In this document: positions 16,072 through 23,274 of the stretch, piece after piece
Layout: every line of letters starts with the position of its first letter
Position numbering within the stretch: the first letter of the stretch is position 1
Source: a virus
Reading direction: 5' to 3' (one strand)
DNA: 31,035 nucleotides
Virus genome (UHGV): UHGV-0099061
Program-made: the position numbers and the translations under genes
Notes under the pieces: model-generated
What the model was told of the DNA's origin: nothing
Seen by the model: the letters and a program-made list of their open reading frames with translations, nothing else
The model's database searches: none

Positions 16072-16770
16072 ATGATCCATGTTCGTACAGGACAATTTGC
16101 TGCCGTGGTGAACGGTAAGCGCTATGAGTTTAATCCTTGCTTTGCTGCGATGGCTAAAATCGGCAACGATAGTGAGCTTGTCGAATATTTCGCACTTATC
16201 CACGGCGGCAAATATCCATCACGATTGCCAGCAGATCCAGACCTACGCAATCGCATTCTGGCGCGGTGTTATGGTGAAATAGTTAAGACATCAATGCACA
16301 TCCTGAAATGTTGCTCAGACGACGAAATAGGCCAGTTATTGGGCGAATGCTGGTTTACTCCTTCGGGTAAGTTAAAGTTAAAGCCCGGATTAATGCCGAT
16401 CGAGGATATCATCACGCTTGCGCAGCACTGCATGTACCACGGTCTTATTGGTGATGGCCCGGAAGAAGAGTCCGGGGAAATCCCGGAAGGGGAATATAAG
16501 CCGACTTTTAACGTCCTTGAATTCGTCTATTCTGCCGTTGCTCACCTGGGCTTGTCAGAATCGGAAGCATGGAATATGACAATGACCGGATATAGGGCCG
16601 CTGTACGCGCTAAAACGCCGCCAGACGAAAGAAACGAGAAAAGCAAGCCAAACATTCACATAAATAAACGTGCTTATGACGAGCAAATGGAGGCCGCTAA
16701 AAAGGCACTAGAAAGAATGAAAAATCGTGAGCAAGAAAAGCCCGGTAGATCCGGGCGTTTTGCTAATTGA
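16072..16770 (+). CDS. putative tail assembly chaperone (233 aa)
   Basis: AAGGTGA SD; position between major tail and tape measure genes; no frameshift partner found; 3' end overlaps a convergent reverse-strand gene. Confidence 0.4.
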   Translation: MIHVRTGQFAAVVNGKRYEFNPCFAAMAKIGNDSELVEYFALIHGGKYPSRLPADPDLRNRILARCYGEIVKTSMHILKCCSDDEIGQLLGECWFTPSGKLKLKPGLMPIEDIITLAQHCMYHGLIGDGPEEESGEIPEGEYKPTFNVLEFVYSAVAHLGLSESEAWNMTMTGYRAAVRAKTPPDERNEKSKPNIHINKRAYDEQMEAAKKALERMKNREQEKPGRSGRFAN

Positions 16771-17137
16771 AATCTTTAATTGCTGTACCTGGTGAACTGT
16801 GTGTGATTGTATTGTATACAGACTTTGCCTTACTGCGATCTTTCCATTCTTTTAGGATGCAGTTATCAAACTTTGCGATAACCCTTGAAGGGGATAATTC
16901 TTCAACATCCATGTAAGTAAATCCTATCGTGCTGGTTACTGAATACCATACGTGATAACTATAATTACCGTCATGCTCGATTCTTTGTGGTTCCCCCATT
17001 ATTTTATTCACTTGCTCACAAGTCATTCCAACTTGCAAATTTTTATCAGCTAACTTAACGAAATCAGTTGATCTTGCGCACCCTGTAAGAGCTAAAGCCA
17101 TAACACCAATGAGAACCGCTTTGATTATTTTTTTCAT
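16763..17137 (-). CDS. lipoprotein (124 aa), second gene of reverse-strand pair; BamE/SmpA-like sequence character
   Basis: AAGGGG SD; signal peptide with lipobox LTGC; mature part (..LQVGMTCEQVNKIMGEP..) resembles small BamE-type lipoproteins as recalled. Confidence 0.65.
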   Translation of the reverse strand: MKKIIKAVLIGVMALALTGCARSTDFVKLADKNLQVGMTCEQVNKIMGEPQRIEHDGNYSYHVWYSVTSTIGFTYMDVEELSPSRVIAKFDNCILKEWKDRSKAKSVYNTITHSSPGTAIKDFN

Positions 17138-17147
17138 GATTTACCCC

Positions 17148-17807
17148 TTAATTCCAGTTGCAAGCGTTTTTCACTTTGTCGATGTGGTTATAAAGACCAT
17201 CAATGTTAAACACTGCTTTCTCAATGTCGCCAGCTTCCGGCACTACTTCAATGATGAATTGTTTTTCGTTAACCAGTTTTTTAATCATTGGGATGGCTTT
17301 TTTGCCGTCCCATAATCCAAGAGCTTTATAATTAGTTGACCGCCACCACTCAGTAGCTACAGCTTTGTGAACGCCGATCCGGTAGTTAATATAAGTAGTG
17401 TCCCCGGCGTCAGTTACATGGTGTGACCATGCTACGAACATTTTTGTTTTATTACCCTGGCAAGCGATTGTTAATACCGGTTTATTCTTATCCTGTGCCT
17501 TCAGTGTCGGGAAAGCATCAAGACTTCCGCTGAATTGTTCTGCTTTCACAAAAAGGAATACGTTTTTTGCGTCCTGCATATCATCTTTTCTTTCAACTAC
17601 AAGCCACTGTTTACCAGCATTTTCTTTTTCTAACTGTGCATCGTATGCGGCTTGTTTTGCTTGTTGTTCTGCAAGCCATTTAGCATTTTTCTCTGCTAAT
17701 GCTTGTTGCTCTTGATTGGTCACTATAGGCGCTTTTTCATTATCCTCATTGCAACCAACCAGACCCAATACCGCCGCAATCATTGCCACTTTTGCTAACC
17801 GTTTCAT
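17148..17807 (-). CDS. lipoprotein (219 aa), first gene of reverse-strand pair
   Basis: GGTGGG SD; signal peptide with lipobox LVGC; Gln/Ala-rich coiled-coil-like segment after the lipobox; promoter-like palindrome upstream. Confidence 0.65.
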   Translation of the reverse strand: MKRLAKVAMIAAVLGLVGCNEDNEKAPIVTNQEQQALAEKNAKWLAEQQAKQAAYDAQLEKENAGKQWLVVERKDDMQDAKNVFLFVKAEQFSGSLDAFPTLKAQDKNKPVLTIACQGNKTKMFVAWSHHVTDAGDTTYINYRIGVHKAVATEWWRSTNYKALGLWDGKKAIPMIKKLVNEKQFIIEVVPEAGDIEKAVFNIDGLYNHIDKVKNACNWN

Positions 17808-17852: not shown

Positions 17853-17896
17853 CTTATACAAAATGGAGTCGTTGAAGTAAAGCCATTTTGTATAAA
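17853..17896. promoter_or_regulatory. perfect 12-bp palindrome TATACAAAATGG-16 bp-CCATTTTGTATA, probable divergent promoter/operator
   Basis: Seen directly; each arm gives CCATTTTGTATAA(A/G) pointing outward towards the lipoprotein operon (left) and tape measure gene (right). Confidence 0.55.
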
Positions 17897-20277: not shown

Positions 20278-20283
20278 ACTAAA

Positions 20284-20310
20284 CCCCGGTGCAATGCCGG
20301 GGTTATTTTT
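20284..20310. terminator. rho-independent terminator after tape measure gene (possibly bidirectional)
   Basis: Stem CCCCGG / CCGGGG with 7-nt loop followed by TTATTTTT; also lies 3' of the convergent reverse-strand gene. Confidence 0.65.
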
Positions 20311-20363: not shown

Positions 20364-20618
20364 TCACTTATGAGTGCCTTTCACGCCACATAACTTGTTA
20401 TAGGCATGGTGCTCAACAATTAACCAAACCTTCAAATCTTCGCTAAACAGCCTCCAATCAAGATTGATATCCATTTTGTATCCGTAACCGTCGCGTAACT
20501 TTTTGGGGTAAACTTCTTTTCTCAGAAAGGCTTTAAGTAATTCCTTACCTTTCTTGATGATCCGGTCCTGTGCGTTTTTCTGTGCTTTCAGATTTCTGTC
20601 AATCGCTACCAGTTTCAT
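20364..20618 (-). CDS. hypothetical basic protein (84 aa), second gene of reverse-strand two-gene cassette
   Basis: ORF with GGGGTGAG SD 17 nt after the stop of the upstream 51-aa ORF; Lys/Arg-rich N-terminal half. Confidence 0.5.
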   Translation of the reverse strand: MKLVAIDRNLKAQKNAQDRIIKKGKELLKAFLRKEVYPKKLRDGYGYKMDINLDWRLFSEDLKVWLIVEHHAYNKLCGVKGTHK

Positions 20619-20635
20619 AACTCACCCCATCATCC

Positions 20636-20791
20636 TTAGTTAAGTGCCTTCAGGAAGAAGTCCCGGTATTCATCTTCTTTCGCATTCATCATGAATTGAC
20701 CGTATTTGAATGCGTCGTCGAAACCCTTAACGATTGCTATTTCCACTTGTTCGAATGCGTTATTTAGCATTACTACTACATAGCGTTTCAT
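20636..20791 (-). CDS. hypothetical small protein (51 aa), first gene of reverse-strand two-gene cassette
   Basis: Found by reading; GGAGG SD 5 nt upstream of ATG; MKRYVVVMLNNAFEQVEIAIVKGFDDAFKYGQFMMNAKEDEYRDFFLKALN. Confidence 0.4.
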   Translation of the reverse strand: MKRYVVVMLNNAFEQVEIAIVKGFDDAFKYGQFMMNAKEDEYRDFFLKALN

Positions 20792-20901
20792 TTTGGGCCT
20801 CCTTCGTTGGTACTACTTTCTTCTTGCTTTCTATATACATCTTGTTGCGTGCTATGTGAAGCCATTTTGTAAACTAGCTATAATCATTGTGACAATGATC
20901 T

Positions 20902-20958: not shown

Positions 20959-21312
20959 ATGCCGGAAGTGTTCAGATGGACGCCGCAAAGAAGCTACAGC
21001 GTGACCAGGAAGCCAGACGTATCTGTTGTTAAGCTGGGCGATGGTTATGAGCAAAGACAGGTAAAAGGTATCAATCCATTGCTTGATAGCTACACCCTGG
21101 TGTTTAAAGGCAGTAGCGCCGGATGTGGTGATGGTGGAAACGTAGCAATCCAGGCGGAAGCATTCTTGAGGGCGCGCGGCGCGGTCGAGGCTTTTTACTG
21201 GTCGCCGTCAATGGATAACGTGCAAAGGCTTTTTGTCTGTCGGCAATGGAGCATGACTAAAGACGGGCCTTTGTACACGCTAAACGCAACGTTTGAGCAA
21301 GTTGTTGGCTAA
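20959..21312 (+). CDS. minor tail protein (lambda M-like)
   Basis: 117 aa; FRW..., GDGYEQR and C-terminal FEQVVG resemble lambda M as recalled; position before L-K-I-J. Confidence 0.7.
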   Translation: MPEVFRWTPQRSYSVTRKPDVSVVKLGDGYEQRQVKGINPLLDSYTLVFKGSSAGCGDGGNVAIQAEAFLRARGAVEAFYWSPSMDNVQRLFVCRQWSMTKDGPLYTLNATFEQVVG

Positions 21313-21509
21313 TGGGGGTTGTTATGTACGGGACTTGTGTAGTTGACAAAACTTACGCTTTTACATTGTTTGACGACTATGAGATCAACGACCTTACTGT
21401 AAAAGCTGACAACGGCGATATATGGTATCTTCACGACGTTGGTGATGGGTACGTTGGGTGTAGATCCCGGGAAGGGAAGGAGGTTTTATTTTTGGTTGAT
21501 GGCGTATAA
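21312..21509 (+). CDS. small protein, paralog-family member relocated in tail module (65 aa)
   Basis: ATG overlaps M-like stop (TAATG); motif F..FDDYEI ... DNGDIWYLHD matches the early-region paralog family; followed by a terminator. Confidence 0.5.
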   Translation: MGVVMYGTCVVDKTYAFTLFDDYEINDLTVKADNGDIWYLHDVGDGYVGCRSREGKEVLFLVDGV

Positions 21510-21515
21510 ACACGA

Positions 21516-21543
21516 CCCCGCGCGAAGCGGGGTTATTTTTATT
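21516..21543 (+). terminator. rho-independent terminator
   Basis: Stem CCCCGC / GCGGGG with GCGAA loop followed by TTATTTTTATT. Confidence 0.6.
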
Positions 21544-21665
21544 CTATTTCCATTAATGCTATATTTTCTGCTATCGTTTTCCAGTCCAGATCTACAGCAT
21601 GAACGCCAAATACTATCAACCCCATTATTATTAGCGCCAAAACTTCTATTTTTATAATCAGTCAC

Positions 21666-21914
21666 CTATAAGTTATCACGCAGATAATTAACGCCCTTAT
21701 CAGTGACGAATGAATGGTTAACCTGGTTTTCATCCGTCATGATGATGAATAACTTTTCATGTAGGTATTTCGCTTTCGGGTACAGCGTTAAACAGACCTG
21801 GTACAGTATCCCGCGCTCAATCAGCAAATCAATAAATTCGTGTTCATGATAACCGATGAGGCGGGCGGCCTGTTTCAACGTGTACACATAATCACCGTGA
21901 TTGCGCCGCCCCAT
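21666..21914 (-). CDS. hypothetical protein with helix-turn-helix-like segment (82 aa), third gene of reverse-strand trio
   Basis: ORF; segment YTLKQAARLIGYHEHEFIDLLIERGIL looks like a DNA-binding HTH; start 9 nt after upstream gene stop. Confidence 0.5.
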   Translation of the reverse strand: MGRRNHGDYVYTLKQAARLIGYHEHEFIDLLIERGILYQVCLTLYPKAKYLHEKLFIIMTDENQVNHSFVTDKGVNYLRDNL

Positions 21915-21923
21915 GTTGCCGCC

Positions 21924-22271
21924 TTATTTATCGAATGCTGAAAGGTTATCGATACAGAAATCTTTCGCCGCTTTTTCGTATTCGCGTTTTGCTTCTGGAT
22001 CGTCAGCCGGGAAACCTTTTGCGTGTATTTCACCAGGGCAAGACTGGTCCATAGAATCTGCATAATAAGCAGTGAAGCTACCATTAATATCTTTCGGGTT
22101 CATATCTTCCACCTCATCAACTATCTGTACCGGATTAGCAGCATATTTCACTGGATGGCCTAAACTACATTCAAGAATCCTGCCTTCTTCCAGGGCTACT
22201 TCTTCGCTATCAAATAATCCGAAACACTCCTTGCTACCACTTAACCACACATCAAGACTGTATTTTTTCAT
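21924..22271 (-). CDS. hypothetical protein (115 aa), second gene of reverse-strand trio
   Basis: ATG 22271 with GAGG 9 nt upstream preferred over longer track ORF (to 22373); overlaps upstream gene by 20 nt. Confidence 0.45.
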   Translation of the reverse strand: MKKYSLDVWLSGSKECFGLFDSEEVALEEGRILECSLGHPVKYAANPVQIVDEVEDMNPKDINGSFTAYYADSMDQSCPGEIHAKGFPADDPEAKREYEKAAKDFCIDNLSAFDK

Positions 22272-22440
22272 TTTTGTTAGCCTCATATTTGACAGGTTCG
22301 ATCTGGTATCCCAAAAGGCGGTCATCCTCAGCAAGTAAAAGCGCGTCAACCAATGCTTCACCCTCGTCGTCATACAGGGCGATAACCTTTTCCCTACCGT
22401 CTGTCATGAATACCGTCAACTTCCATAGCTTTTCAGTCAT
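22252..22440 (-). CDS. hypothetical acidic small protein (62 aa), first gene of reverse-strand trio
   Basis: Strong GGAGGTG SD 6 nt upstream of ATG 22440 (longer track ORF to 22560 has no SD); Asp/Glu-rich. Confidence 0.5.
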   Translation of the reverse strand: MTEKLWKLTVFMTDGREKVIALYDDEGEALVDALLLAEDDRLLGYQIEPVKYEANKNEKIQS

Positions 22441-22569
22441 AACGCACCTCCGCGCCATTTTGTTAACTATGCTTCCGTTTGAGTAAAATATACATATTGT
22501 AAAAACCGCGATCAATCCATTTTGGTATGATTTAGCGTGACGCAGATCACAGAATGACAAGGTGAGAAA

Positions 22570-23274
22570 ATGCGCAATATTCCGAGAGAAATGATTATTG
22601 ATTCCGTCGATGCCGGAGTCGGCGCGGTAATTGACTTGTTTGAATTAGACCTCACGCCCCTGGGTGGCGAGGTTATCCGCTTCCATTCCGGCGTGAATGG
22701 CTATTACGGCCCGGTTATCTGGAAGGGGGTGGCTTACAACAGCTACCCTATCGAGGCCACTGGCTTCGAAATGAAAAACGAGGGTGTCTATTCACGCCCG
22801 CAAATGGTTGTAGCCAACATTGGCGGCCTAATCACCGGGATGAATAACGATTTCAACGACCTGCGAGGAATGAAAGTTACACGCCGCCAGGTGGAAGTAA
22901 AATACCTGGACGCCATCAACTTCCCCAACGGCAACCCGGATGCAGATCCGTCTATCGAGGCGGTGTCTTTTTACGTCGTTGAGGCGATGAGCGAAGAAAC
23001 AGCCGACCAGGTGCAATATGAGCTGTCAACGCCAATTGATGCTGACAAGGCGGTTATCCCAGGGCGCACAATCCTTGCTGACGTTTGCCAATGGCAATAT
23101 CGCGGCGACGGTTGCGGATACAGTGGCGGCCCTGTAGCTACTGATAAAGACGAATCGACCAGCGATCCAAAGCTGGATAAATGCAGCCACCGCCTGAGCG
23201 GTTGCCGTTTACGTTTCCCGCGCCCGAATCCGTTACCAATTTCATGTTTCCCAGGATCGAGCAAGGTGGGTTGA
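22570..23274 (+). CDS. minor tail protein (lambda L-like)
   Basis: 234 aa; AAGGTGAG SD; C-terminal Cys cluster (CQWQYRGDGCGY...C...C) as in lambda L; position. Confidence 0.8.
   Translation: MRNIPREMIIDSVDAGVGAVIDLFELDLTPLGGEVIRFHSGVNGYYGPVIWKGVAYNSYPIEATGFEMKNEGVYSRPQMVVANIGGLITGMNNDFNDLRGMKVTRRQVEVKYLDAINFPNGNPDADPSIEAVSFYVVEAMSEETADQVQYELSTPIDADKAVIPGRTILADVCQWQYRGDGCGYSGGPVATDKDESTSDPKLDKCSHRLSGCRLRFPRPNPLPISCFPGSSKVG

Follow-up and report, generated by a model that had tools for sequence, protein, structure and literature searches.

A cargo bay of small genes between the M-like and L-like tail genes of UHGV-0099061

What are small genes doing in the middle of a tail operon? The question is raised by UHGV virus genome UHGV-0099061, a 31,035-nt stretch of viral DNA (the window), in which a 1.25-kb block separates the genes for an M-like and an L-like minor tail protein. 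An earlier reading of this DNA, made from its letters and open reading frames (ORFs) without database searches (hereafter the sequence-only reading), proposed that the block is made of small genes, and the ORF map and Pfam searches bear this out. We conclude that this segment (the island) occupies an M-L hot spot as a cargo bay and does not belong to the tail.

We surveyed the M-L junction twice, each time anchoring on the flanking tail genes, and the surveys are therefore not biased towards island-bearing loci. Within the window's clade, the island is present in 34 of 35 Escherichia coli prophages from complete genomes and in 40 of 41 viral contigs (L at least 85% identical, M also found). 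An island-less allele was seen twice, in E. coli MS 21-1 and in the 53.9-kb IMG/VR contig 3300045988_076424. Both lack the same 1131 bp, exactly 21326-22456, with 2 bp of microhomology at the junction. The flanks are 99.9% (left) and 96% (right) identical to the window, the M protein of the MS 21-1 prophage is identical (WP_001115389.1), and M, L, K, I and J are intact. Because an orphaned promoter region remains, we interpret this allele as a deletion and not as the ancestral state.

Outside the clade, the junction looks different. In a sister clade (L about 71% identical), the M-L gap is only 45 nt in 17 of 37 contigs, and the remaining loci hold 302-1301 nt of unrelated cargo, with the island genes absent. 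For example, the slot contains a leftward gene for a 268-aa DUF6602/PD-DExK NucC-like nuclease in one sister-clade phage (L125, IMG/VR 3300011827_000043; PADLOC matches PD_DExK 2.7e-26 and NucC 9.8e-14) and a 154-aa retropepsin-like aspartyl protease in another (L143). Ten species-representative genomes of other genera behave likewise: three have a gap of 5-45 nt and none has the island genes. The window's base composition also changes at the island, with a GC content of 40-47% over 21450-22500 vs 50-55% in M, L and K. Given the surveys and this GC drop, we consider the M-L junction to be a cargo hot spot in which one cargo is nearly fixed in one lineage.

The sequence-only reading had suggested comparing this junction across related phages, and the comparison reveals an insert that is absent from the sister-clade and other-genus genomes surveyed and that one natural allele within the clade has lost. 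Its term for the island, a moron-type cassette, fits an accessory insert with a predicted promoter and terminator, but the island is not sporadic in its own clade, as the counts above make plain.

The clade itself is familiar. The region is 82-88% identical to mEp021, mEp010, mEp013, mEp044, mEp515, mEp554 and MagusPhagus, and a prophage of E. coli M1/5 is 100% identical to the window. By these sequence matches, the window belongs among the mEp021-like (mEpimmI) temperate siphophages and is an E. coli prophage. The Nus-dependent, non-lambdoid mEpimmI phages have been described as a group (PMC11893012), and their reported frequency in the human gut equals that of lambdoid coliphages. In the same paper's manual pangenome analysis, the core proteins include a "KilAC-like antirepressor"; the M-L locus is not one of the paper's subjects, and the island genes are unnamed in every list of its supplementary files. 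Only the repressor, the N-like antiterminator, the integrases, the receptors and the exclusion lipoproteins of mEpimmI phages have been studied so far. The genes of the island and its flanks are as follows.

20959..21312, + strand: M-like minor tail protein, left flank (PF05939, E 1.2e-27)
21324..21509 (alternative ATG 21312), + strand: g61, 61-aa acidic protein (phrog_3249, E 1.9e-22)
21326..22456, unstranded: segment missing from the natural island-less allele (MS 21-1 and the IMG/VR contig)
21514..21534, both strands: bidirectional intrinsic terminator (hairpin scan and folding energies)
21539..21655, - strand: membrane-peptide gene, 38 aa, fourth leftward gene (homolog of mEp515_97)
21666..21914, - strand: g82, stand-alone ANT/KilAC protein, 82 aa (Pfam match)
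21924..22271, - strand: g115, acidic two-module protein, 115 aa (phrog_38567)
22252..22440, - strand: g62, acidic, 62 aa, leads the leftward operon (phrog_29559)
22445..22451, - strand: Shine-Dalgarno sequence GGAGGTG of g62 (read from the sequence; kept in most relatives)
22570..23274, + strand: L-like minor tail protein, right flank (PF05100, E 9e-72)

The leftward trio of 62, 115 and 82 aa that the sequence-only reading described is present as claimed, and so is the strong Shine-Dalgarno sequence on its first gene, 5 nt ahead of the g62 start. That reading overlooked the fourth leftward gene, which encodes a small single-helix membrane peptide immediately downstream of g82. The leftward genes are tightly packed: g62 and g115 overlap by 20 nt, and the gaps are 9 nt from g115 to g82 and 10 nt from g82 to the peptide gene. 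The terminator that had been noticed in the island is a G+C-rich hairpin with T-runs, detected on both strands (folding -16.6 and -15.9 kcal/mol, z -3.65 and -2.80). It is annotated in mEp021 and mEp515 too, and in relatives its stem is conserved while its loop is inverted. Two predicted transcription units, M-g61 and the leftward operon, converge on this one bidirectional terminator.

Pairwise ratios of nonsynonymous to synonymous substitution (dN/dS) are 0.09 for g61, 0.10 for g82, 0.26 for g62 and 0.21 for whole g115 (0.23 for its N-terminal domain and 0.13 for its C-terminal module). The flanking genes have values of 0.065 (M) and 0.044 (L). Because the island values lie between 0.09 and 0.26, we take g61, g62, g115 and g82 to be protein-coding and under purifying selection.

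The forward gene, g61, has the same orientation as M and is the final gene ahead of the terminator. A GGGGG ribosome-binding site directly follows the M stop codon, and the 61-aa form starting at 21324 is the one annotated in mEp021, mEp515 and MagusPhagus. The sequence-only reading placed g61 in an early-region paralog family. Five tandem small paralogs do lie at 355-1526 on the + strand (71-85 aa, three matching phrog_31142, with a common D-x-G-D-x-W motif), and g61 has a weak full-length match to them (hhalign probability 20%, E 1e-3; controls at most 1.4%). The family link therefore survives as a weak profile match, but the paralogs are not an early region: they start the late operon, immediately after a Q-like antiterminator.

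The first two leftward genes encode acidic proteins, as had been said of g62: both g62 and g115 have an isoelectric point (pI) of 4.4. An alignment of the g115 family reveals two modules. Residues 1-50 are modelled as a beta-beta-alpha-beta domain (AlphaFold2 predicted local distance difference test, pLDDT, 86-91) which is highly variable, with six sequence types. The C-terminal 59 residues (ADSMDQSCPGEIHAKGFPADDPEAKREYEKAAKDFCIDNL) are nearly invariant, and this module always begins with Met and occurs alone as 56-aa proteins. Its model is mostly of low confidence (pLDDT <50 for 63-88), with a helix predicted only at 92-110.

g62 comprises a 51-aa conserved core and a variable tail, which is the part that overlaps the start of g115, and it falls into four sequence types at 80% identity. 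It aligns with the N-terminal domain of g115 over 48 columns (hhalign probability 75%, E 2.5e-5; controls <6%), and judged by this profile match the two are paralogs. Of the possible pairings between the g62 and g115 N-terminal types (4 x 6), 11 were observed. The types reassort freely, so we rejected the idea that their co-variation reflects a co-evolving pair.

The g115 family is narrow. It forms 58 clusters in a set of 5.8 billion proteins, a profile search of 1.84 billion representatives for a wider family gave 13 hits that were all the same narrow family or repeat noise, and the phage collection holds no record of a g115 homolog outside the mEp group. Fold searches with g62 and g115 returned generic small alpha/beta matches only, plus a fold-level likeness to DUF7336 phage proteins. 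These small proteins resemble the g115 N-terminal fold (target-normalised TM-score 0.65-0.8), but the Foldseek E of about 0.01 falls short of the 0.001 level of significance, and Pfam gives no match in sequence. An apparent relationship between g115 and RecA (PDB E 6e-8) was rejected as an artefact: it arose from artificial chains of 4-6 fused RecA copies, and a single copy scores 4.5 bits with an independent E-value of about 520. We also rejected g62 as a paralog of the 51-aa protein encoded upstream of a ParE-like gene nearby, a match that is plausible by eye and has an hhalign probability of 0.3%. Some relatives carry an optional 75-aa gene between g82 and g115 (mEp021_72, at 4050-4277 of our locus L001, and also in L025, L036, L042, L043 and L048), which has no family match in PHROGs or Pfam.

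In the window, the start codon of the membrane-peptide gene has changed from ATG to ATA. What is left is an ORF of 33 aa that begins at a TTG codon, and the gene may be decaying. Across 49 related loci, an intact ATG is found in 26 (15 with a 45-aa allele and 11 with a 38-aa allele), ATA in 7 (the window and 6 close relatives), and the peptide is absent in about 14. In a related arrangement, positions 4001-4490 of a metagenomic contig (ENA ERZ27282637 k113_12147) encode a g115 homolog with 44% identity and, immediately after it, a 47-aa protein homologous to the membrane peptide; g62 and g82 are both missing there. A DUF2201 protein on that contig is 61% identical to those of rV5-like virulent myophages; megablast of the contig against the phage collection found no nucleotide match, so the rV5-like assignment is at the protein level only. 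We infer that g115 is functionally paired with the membrane peptide. Because this pair travels alone, the g62 and g115 types reassort and the optional genes vary, we view the island as an array of separable small effectors and not as one machine.

The remaining leftward gene, g82, encodes a regulatory domain. It matches ANT/KilAC (PF03374) with 29.4 bits against a Pfam gathering cut-off of 25.3, covering profile positions 23-105 of 108, and the annotation pipeline PGAP assigns the same name. The HTH-like segment reported by the sequence-only reading is thereby confirmed, both by this match and by a modelled winged helix; structure prediction for the trio, which that reading had proposed, thus yielded this fold for g82 and the beta-beta-alpha-beta domain of g115. 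g82 consists of KilAC only, with no N-terminal AntA/AntB, Bro-N or Rha domain. Its tblastn relatives are larger Rha/Ant proteins in which the domain is C-terminal, and its identity to the C-terminal domains of enterobacterial and Vibrio Ant/Rha proteins is 30-38%. Single-sequence and profile searches of PDB with g82 gave nothing useful.

The fold of g82 models as a winged helix of the MerR/Xis type, the winged helix-turn-helix found in MerR and in excisionases (Xis, AlpA, RdfS and P2 Cox). Unlike that group, g82 has no MerR coiled-coil dimeriser and no adjoining integrase, its charge is neutral (pI 7), and its putative recognition helix is acidic (HEHEFIDLLIERG). Members of its own family include AriS of Listeria phage phi10403S and Ant1/Ant2 of P1/P7, which share ANT/KilAC (PF03374) with g82, and for AriS the KilAC domain alone is sufficient to block the SOS response (PMC9043618). 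AriS and the Ant proteins have two domains, however, whereas g82 is a lone domain, and any such activity of g82 is suggested by analogy. As a separate observation, synonymous divergence is about 0.32 for g82 vs 0.76-0.94 for M, g61, g115 and L; this could reflect a recombination anchor, a recent sweep or nucleotide-level constraint.

Upstream of g62, the gap between the leftward operon and L (22441-22569) is more conserved than the adjacent coding sequence. It contains the following elements.

22487..22515, - strand: leftward promoter TTGATC-17-TATATT (scan, 9 of 12 matches)
22460..22489, + strand: rightward promoter-like site TTGTTA-18-TAAAAT (scan; its -10 overlaps the leftward -10)
22484..22501, unstranded: 18-bp near-palindrome TAAAATATACATATTGTA, candidate operator (spans both divergent -10 boxes; unique in the window)
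22455-22462 and 22517-22524, + strand: two CCATTTTG elements (the right-hand copy abuts the leftward -35)
22536..22551, + strand: CGTGA-N6-TCACA inverted repeat containing CAGATCACA (27 nt ahead of the L start codon)

Across 34 distinct sequences, the leftward -10 is invariant, the -35 is TTGATC or TTGATA, and the spacer varies, a conservation pattern that fits a predicted functioning sigma-70-type promoter. Three of its sequences, a 13-mer (CAAAATGGATTGA), TTTTAC and TATATT, recur in the same register in an early rightward promoter-like region that lies downstream of the prophage's repressor gene. The near-palindrome is a perfect 8-bp inverted repeat (TACAATAT-AC-ATATTGTA) in half of the relatives. 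The TTGCAAG-type repeats found close to the repressor gene do not occur in 22441-22569, so the gap lends no support to control of the leftward promoter by a CI operator.

The sequence-only reading described promoter-like CCATTTTG elements upstream of the trio. They are indeed overrepresented in the window (10 vs 2.1 expected, with 0 of 100 shuffles reaching 10) but are not specific to the trio, as they also lie ahead of the rightward tape-measure, M and L genes. Their register to the sigma-70 boxes differs among sites, so we rejected the reading in which CCATTTTG serves as a -35 or -10 box in a constant position. It is the core of a dispersed TTTACAAAATGG / CCATTTTGTAAA element with a dozen or more prophage sites, mostly intergenic. 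Perfect 13-bp inverted pairs of this element, with a spacer of about 16 nt, occur at 1550-1590 and 17854-17895 (folding z -5.1 and -5.9 as RNA), single copies lie at 20862, 22455, 22517, 29902, 13737 and 20471, and further copies flank the prophage repressor gene and the nutR2/terminator region. Both the gap and the region upstream of M (at 20861) contain a 16-nt direct repeat, GCCATTTTGTwAACTA.

The inverted repeat at 22536-22551 was considered as a CRP site and rejected (2 found vs 1.18 expected). The CAGATCACA motif within it occurs 4 times vs 0.18 expected, always on the + strand (5671, 17906, 22543 and 29895). Three of these copies stand 27-55 nt before the start codon of a rightward gene with a leftward cassette on its upstream side, namely the tape-measure gene, L and the gene after J, and the upstream regions of the tape-measure gene and L align as CCATTTTG-(G)TATrAt-N11-CAGATCACA-N20-ATG. 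Such regions may be late-operon restart promoters. A search of the whole window against Rfam found no family.

What, then, does the cargo do? The anti-defence or regulatory role that the sequence-only reading put forward is possible. We rank a KilAC-centred regulatory or host-modulating array first, with defence or exclusion and early anti-defence next behind it and a structural role last. The first of these, which we rate at a little better than even, is an M-L cargo bay that combines a late-read g61 with an autonomous leftward array of small independent effectors. Transcription from M would continue into g61, the last gene of a late sub-operon. g62, g115, g82 and the start-less peptide gene would make up a tightly spaced leftward operon under a sigma-70 promoter of its own beside L. 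Because this operon is antisense to late transcription, it would be expressed in the lysogen or in early infection, and late read-through would damp it. g82 would most likely be the regulator, binding either a protein (the repressor or RecA/SOS, as with the KilAC domain of AriS) or the palindromic operator over its own promoter, and g62 and g115 would probably be stoichiometric binders. For all of the island proteins, both the molecular targets and the timing of expression are what we infer.

Several points weigh against this account. Its neutral charge and acidic putative recognition helix make operator binding by g82 doubtful, and the link between KilAC and SOS comes from a distant Gram-positive homolog that was overexpressed. 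Near-fixation in the clade is easier to reconcile with an important phage function than with a dispensable moron, the island-less allele is known as sequence alone (MS 21-1 and one contig), and the leftward promoter and its timing are predictions. Furthermore, searches of PADLOC, Pfam, NCBIfam and PHROGs place none of the island proteins in a known family of defence, anti-defence or toxin-antitoxin function; for g61, g62, g115 and g82, PADLOC, Pfam and NCBIfam gave no such hit, and a neighbouring 84-aa protein does match ParE_like.

Two known systems help to place the array. Morons of lambdoid phages, in the sense of Juhala and Hendrix, are cassettes between late genes, as in HK97 and HK022 or with lom and bor of lambda. 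The island resembles them in having extra genes between otherwise adjacent genes, a predicted promoter and terminator, deviant composition and a natural allele lacking the insert. It differs in being a multi-gene leftward operon plus a forward gene, in being nearly fixed and not sporadic, and in that its expression in the lysogen is only predicted. The immI region of P22 (mnt-arc-ant) is embedded in the late region beside the tailspike gene. The likeness, which we treat as a lead only, lies in an antirepressor-family gene in the late/tail region, divergent overlapping promoters and a candidate palindromic operator; by contrast, the island has no ribbon-helix-helix Arc/Mnt homologs, g82 has the KilAC domain only, and its partner genes are unrelated orphans.

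One alternative is a lysogenic-conversion or defence module, in which the prophage would express superinfection exclusion or abortive infection, with g115 and the peptide as a toxin/antitoxin-like membrane pair and g82 as regulator. The layout is that of a classic moron, with a predicted promoter and terminator of its own and an orientation opposite to the late genes, and the neighbouring leftward cassettes (a ParE-like pair and a VasI/TagO-like lipoprotein) are of such a kind, but the trio itself contains no defence or toxin-antitoxin family (PADLOC, Pfam, NCBIfam). The window lineage has lost the peptide start and kept g115, as expected for a decaying toxin; however, the roughly 14 peptide-less loci among the 49 have g115 too, and the pair also turns up in a virulent rV5-like phage, for which lysogenic conversion has no meaning. 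Lipoprotein-mediated exclusion demonstrated in the mEpimmI group (PMC11893012) and a NucC-like PD-DExK nuclease in the same slot of a sister-clade phage count in its favour. Overall, we regard this reading as possible but unlikely.

We think it equally unlikely that the island is an anti-defence or host-takeover module, whose small acidic early proteins would bind and neutralise host defence or DNA-binding proteins. The size and acidity of g62 and g115 are suitable, and their N-terminal domains are the most variable at the locus, with alleles that reassort between conserved flanks, but dN/dS values of 0.2-0.26 give no sign of overall positive selection. The 13-mer, spacer motif and -10 box common to the leftward and early rightward promoters would agree with early expression, and the g115 module's presence in a virulent phage also counts in favour.

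Group-specific structural or assembly accessory proteins of the tail tip are very unlikely: the genes do sit in the tail-tip cluster, are nearly universal in the clade and include a g61 predicted to be co-transcribed with M, but the leftward trio runs antisense to the tail operon, M, L, K, I and J are all intact in a natural allele that lacks the four genes, sister-clade phages with L 70% identical lack them, and one of the proteins is a KilAC regulatory domain. The sequence-only reading had named conserved structural components shared by all relatives as the finding that would overturn it. The near universality within the clade was found, but a structural character was not: the island proteins have no structural-family match in Pfam or PHROGs, and the mEp021 homologs are annotated as hypothetical or putative antirepressor, none being labelled a virion protein. 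The mEp021 virion has been analysed by mass spectrometry (PMC11893012).

To return to the KilAC-centred array, a more specific version of it is a long shot: g82, produced from the prophage's leftward promoter, would damp RecA/SOS or shield the LexA-like CI repressor, and g115 with the peptide would be a new mobile two-gene effector of temperate and virulent coliphages. If true, this role of g82 would explain why most mEpimmI prophages are poorly inducible by ultraviolet light despite the S24 autocleavage domain of their repressor, and modulation of SOS or the repressor by KilAC would extend the AriS finding to Gram-negative phages. If not, the locus is still a well-mapped hot spot in a tail operon, with cargo as different as regulators and a NucC-like nuclease.

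Public records already contained the phage group, its gene calls and the KilAC annotation, and morons in tail operons are a known kind of element. What this analysis adds is a defined hot spot with a defined natural deletion allele, a fourth leftward gene, the paralogy of g62 and g115, the two-module structure of g115, a g115-peptide pair also present in a virulent phage, the promoter anatomy and the winged-helix fold modelled for a KilAC protein that stands alone. Among the non-structural blocks of the mEpimmI tail region, the island is the most conserved; it holds three orphan or near-orphan protein families. Since the natural deletion allele has defined end points, a clean isogenic comparison is possible.

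Other leftward cassettes lie nearby in the window. Between the tape-measure gene and M, 20364-20791 (- strand) encodes a 51-aa protein and then an 84-aa ParE-like protein (PF24732, E 9e-12), probably a toxin-antitoxin pair; it has a bidirectional terminator at 20282-20304 and is present in nearly all relatives. Just ahead of the tape-measure gene, a low-GC cassette at 16763-17807 (- strand) encodes a 219-aa VasI/TagO-like lipoprotein (17148-17807; PF11319, E 1.2e-15) and a 124-aa protein. After the J-like tail-fibre gene, 29506-29750 (- strand) is a small gene whose product has a signal-peptide-like N terminus (MKKLIVACILSALSFGAFA...), adjoined by a strong terminator at about 29462-29490; it looks like another moron-type cassette, possibly for an exclusion protein.

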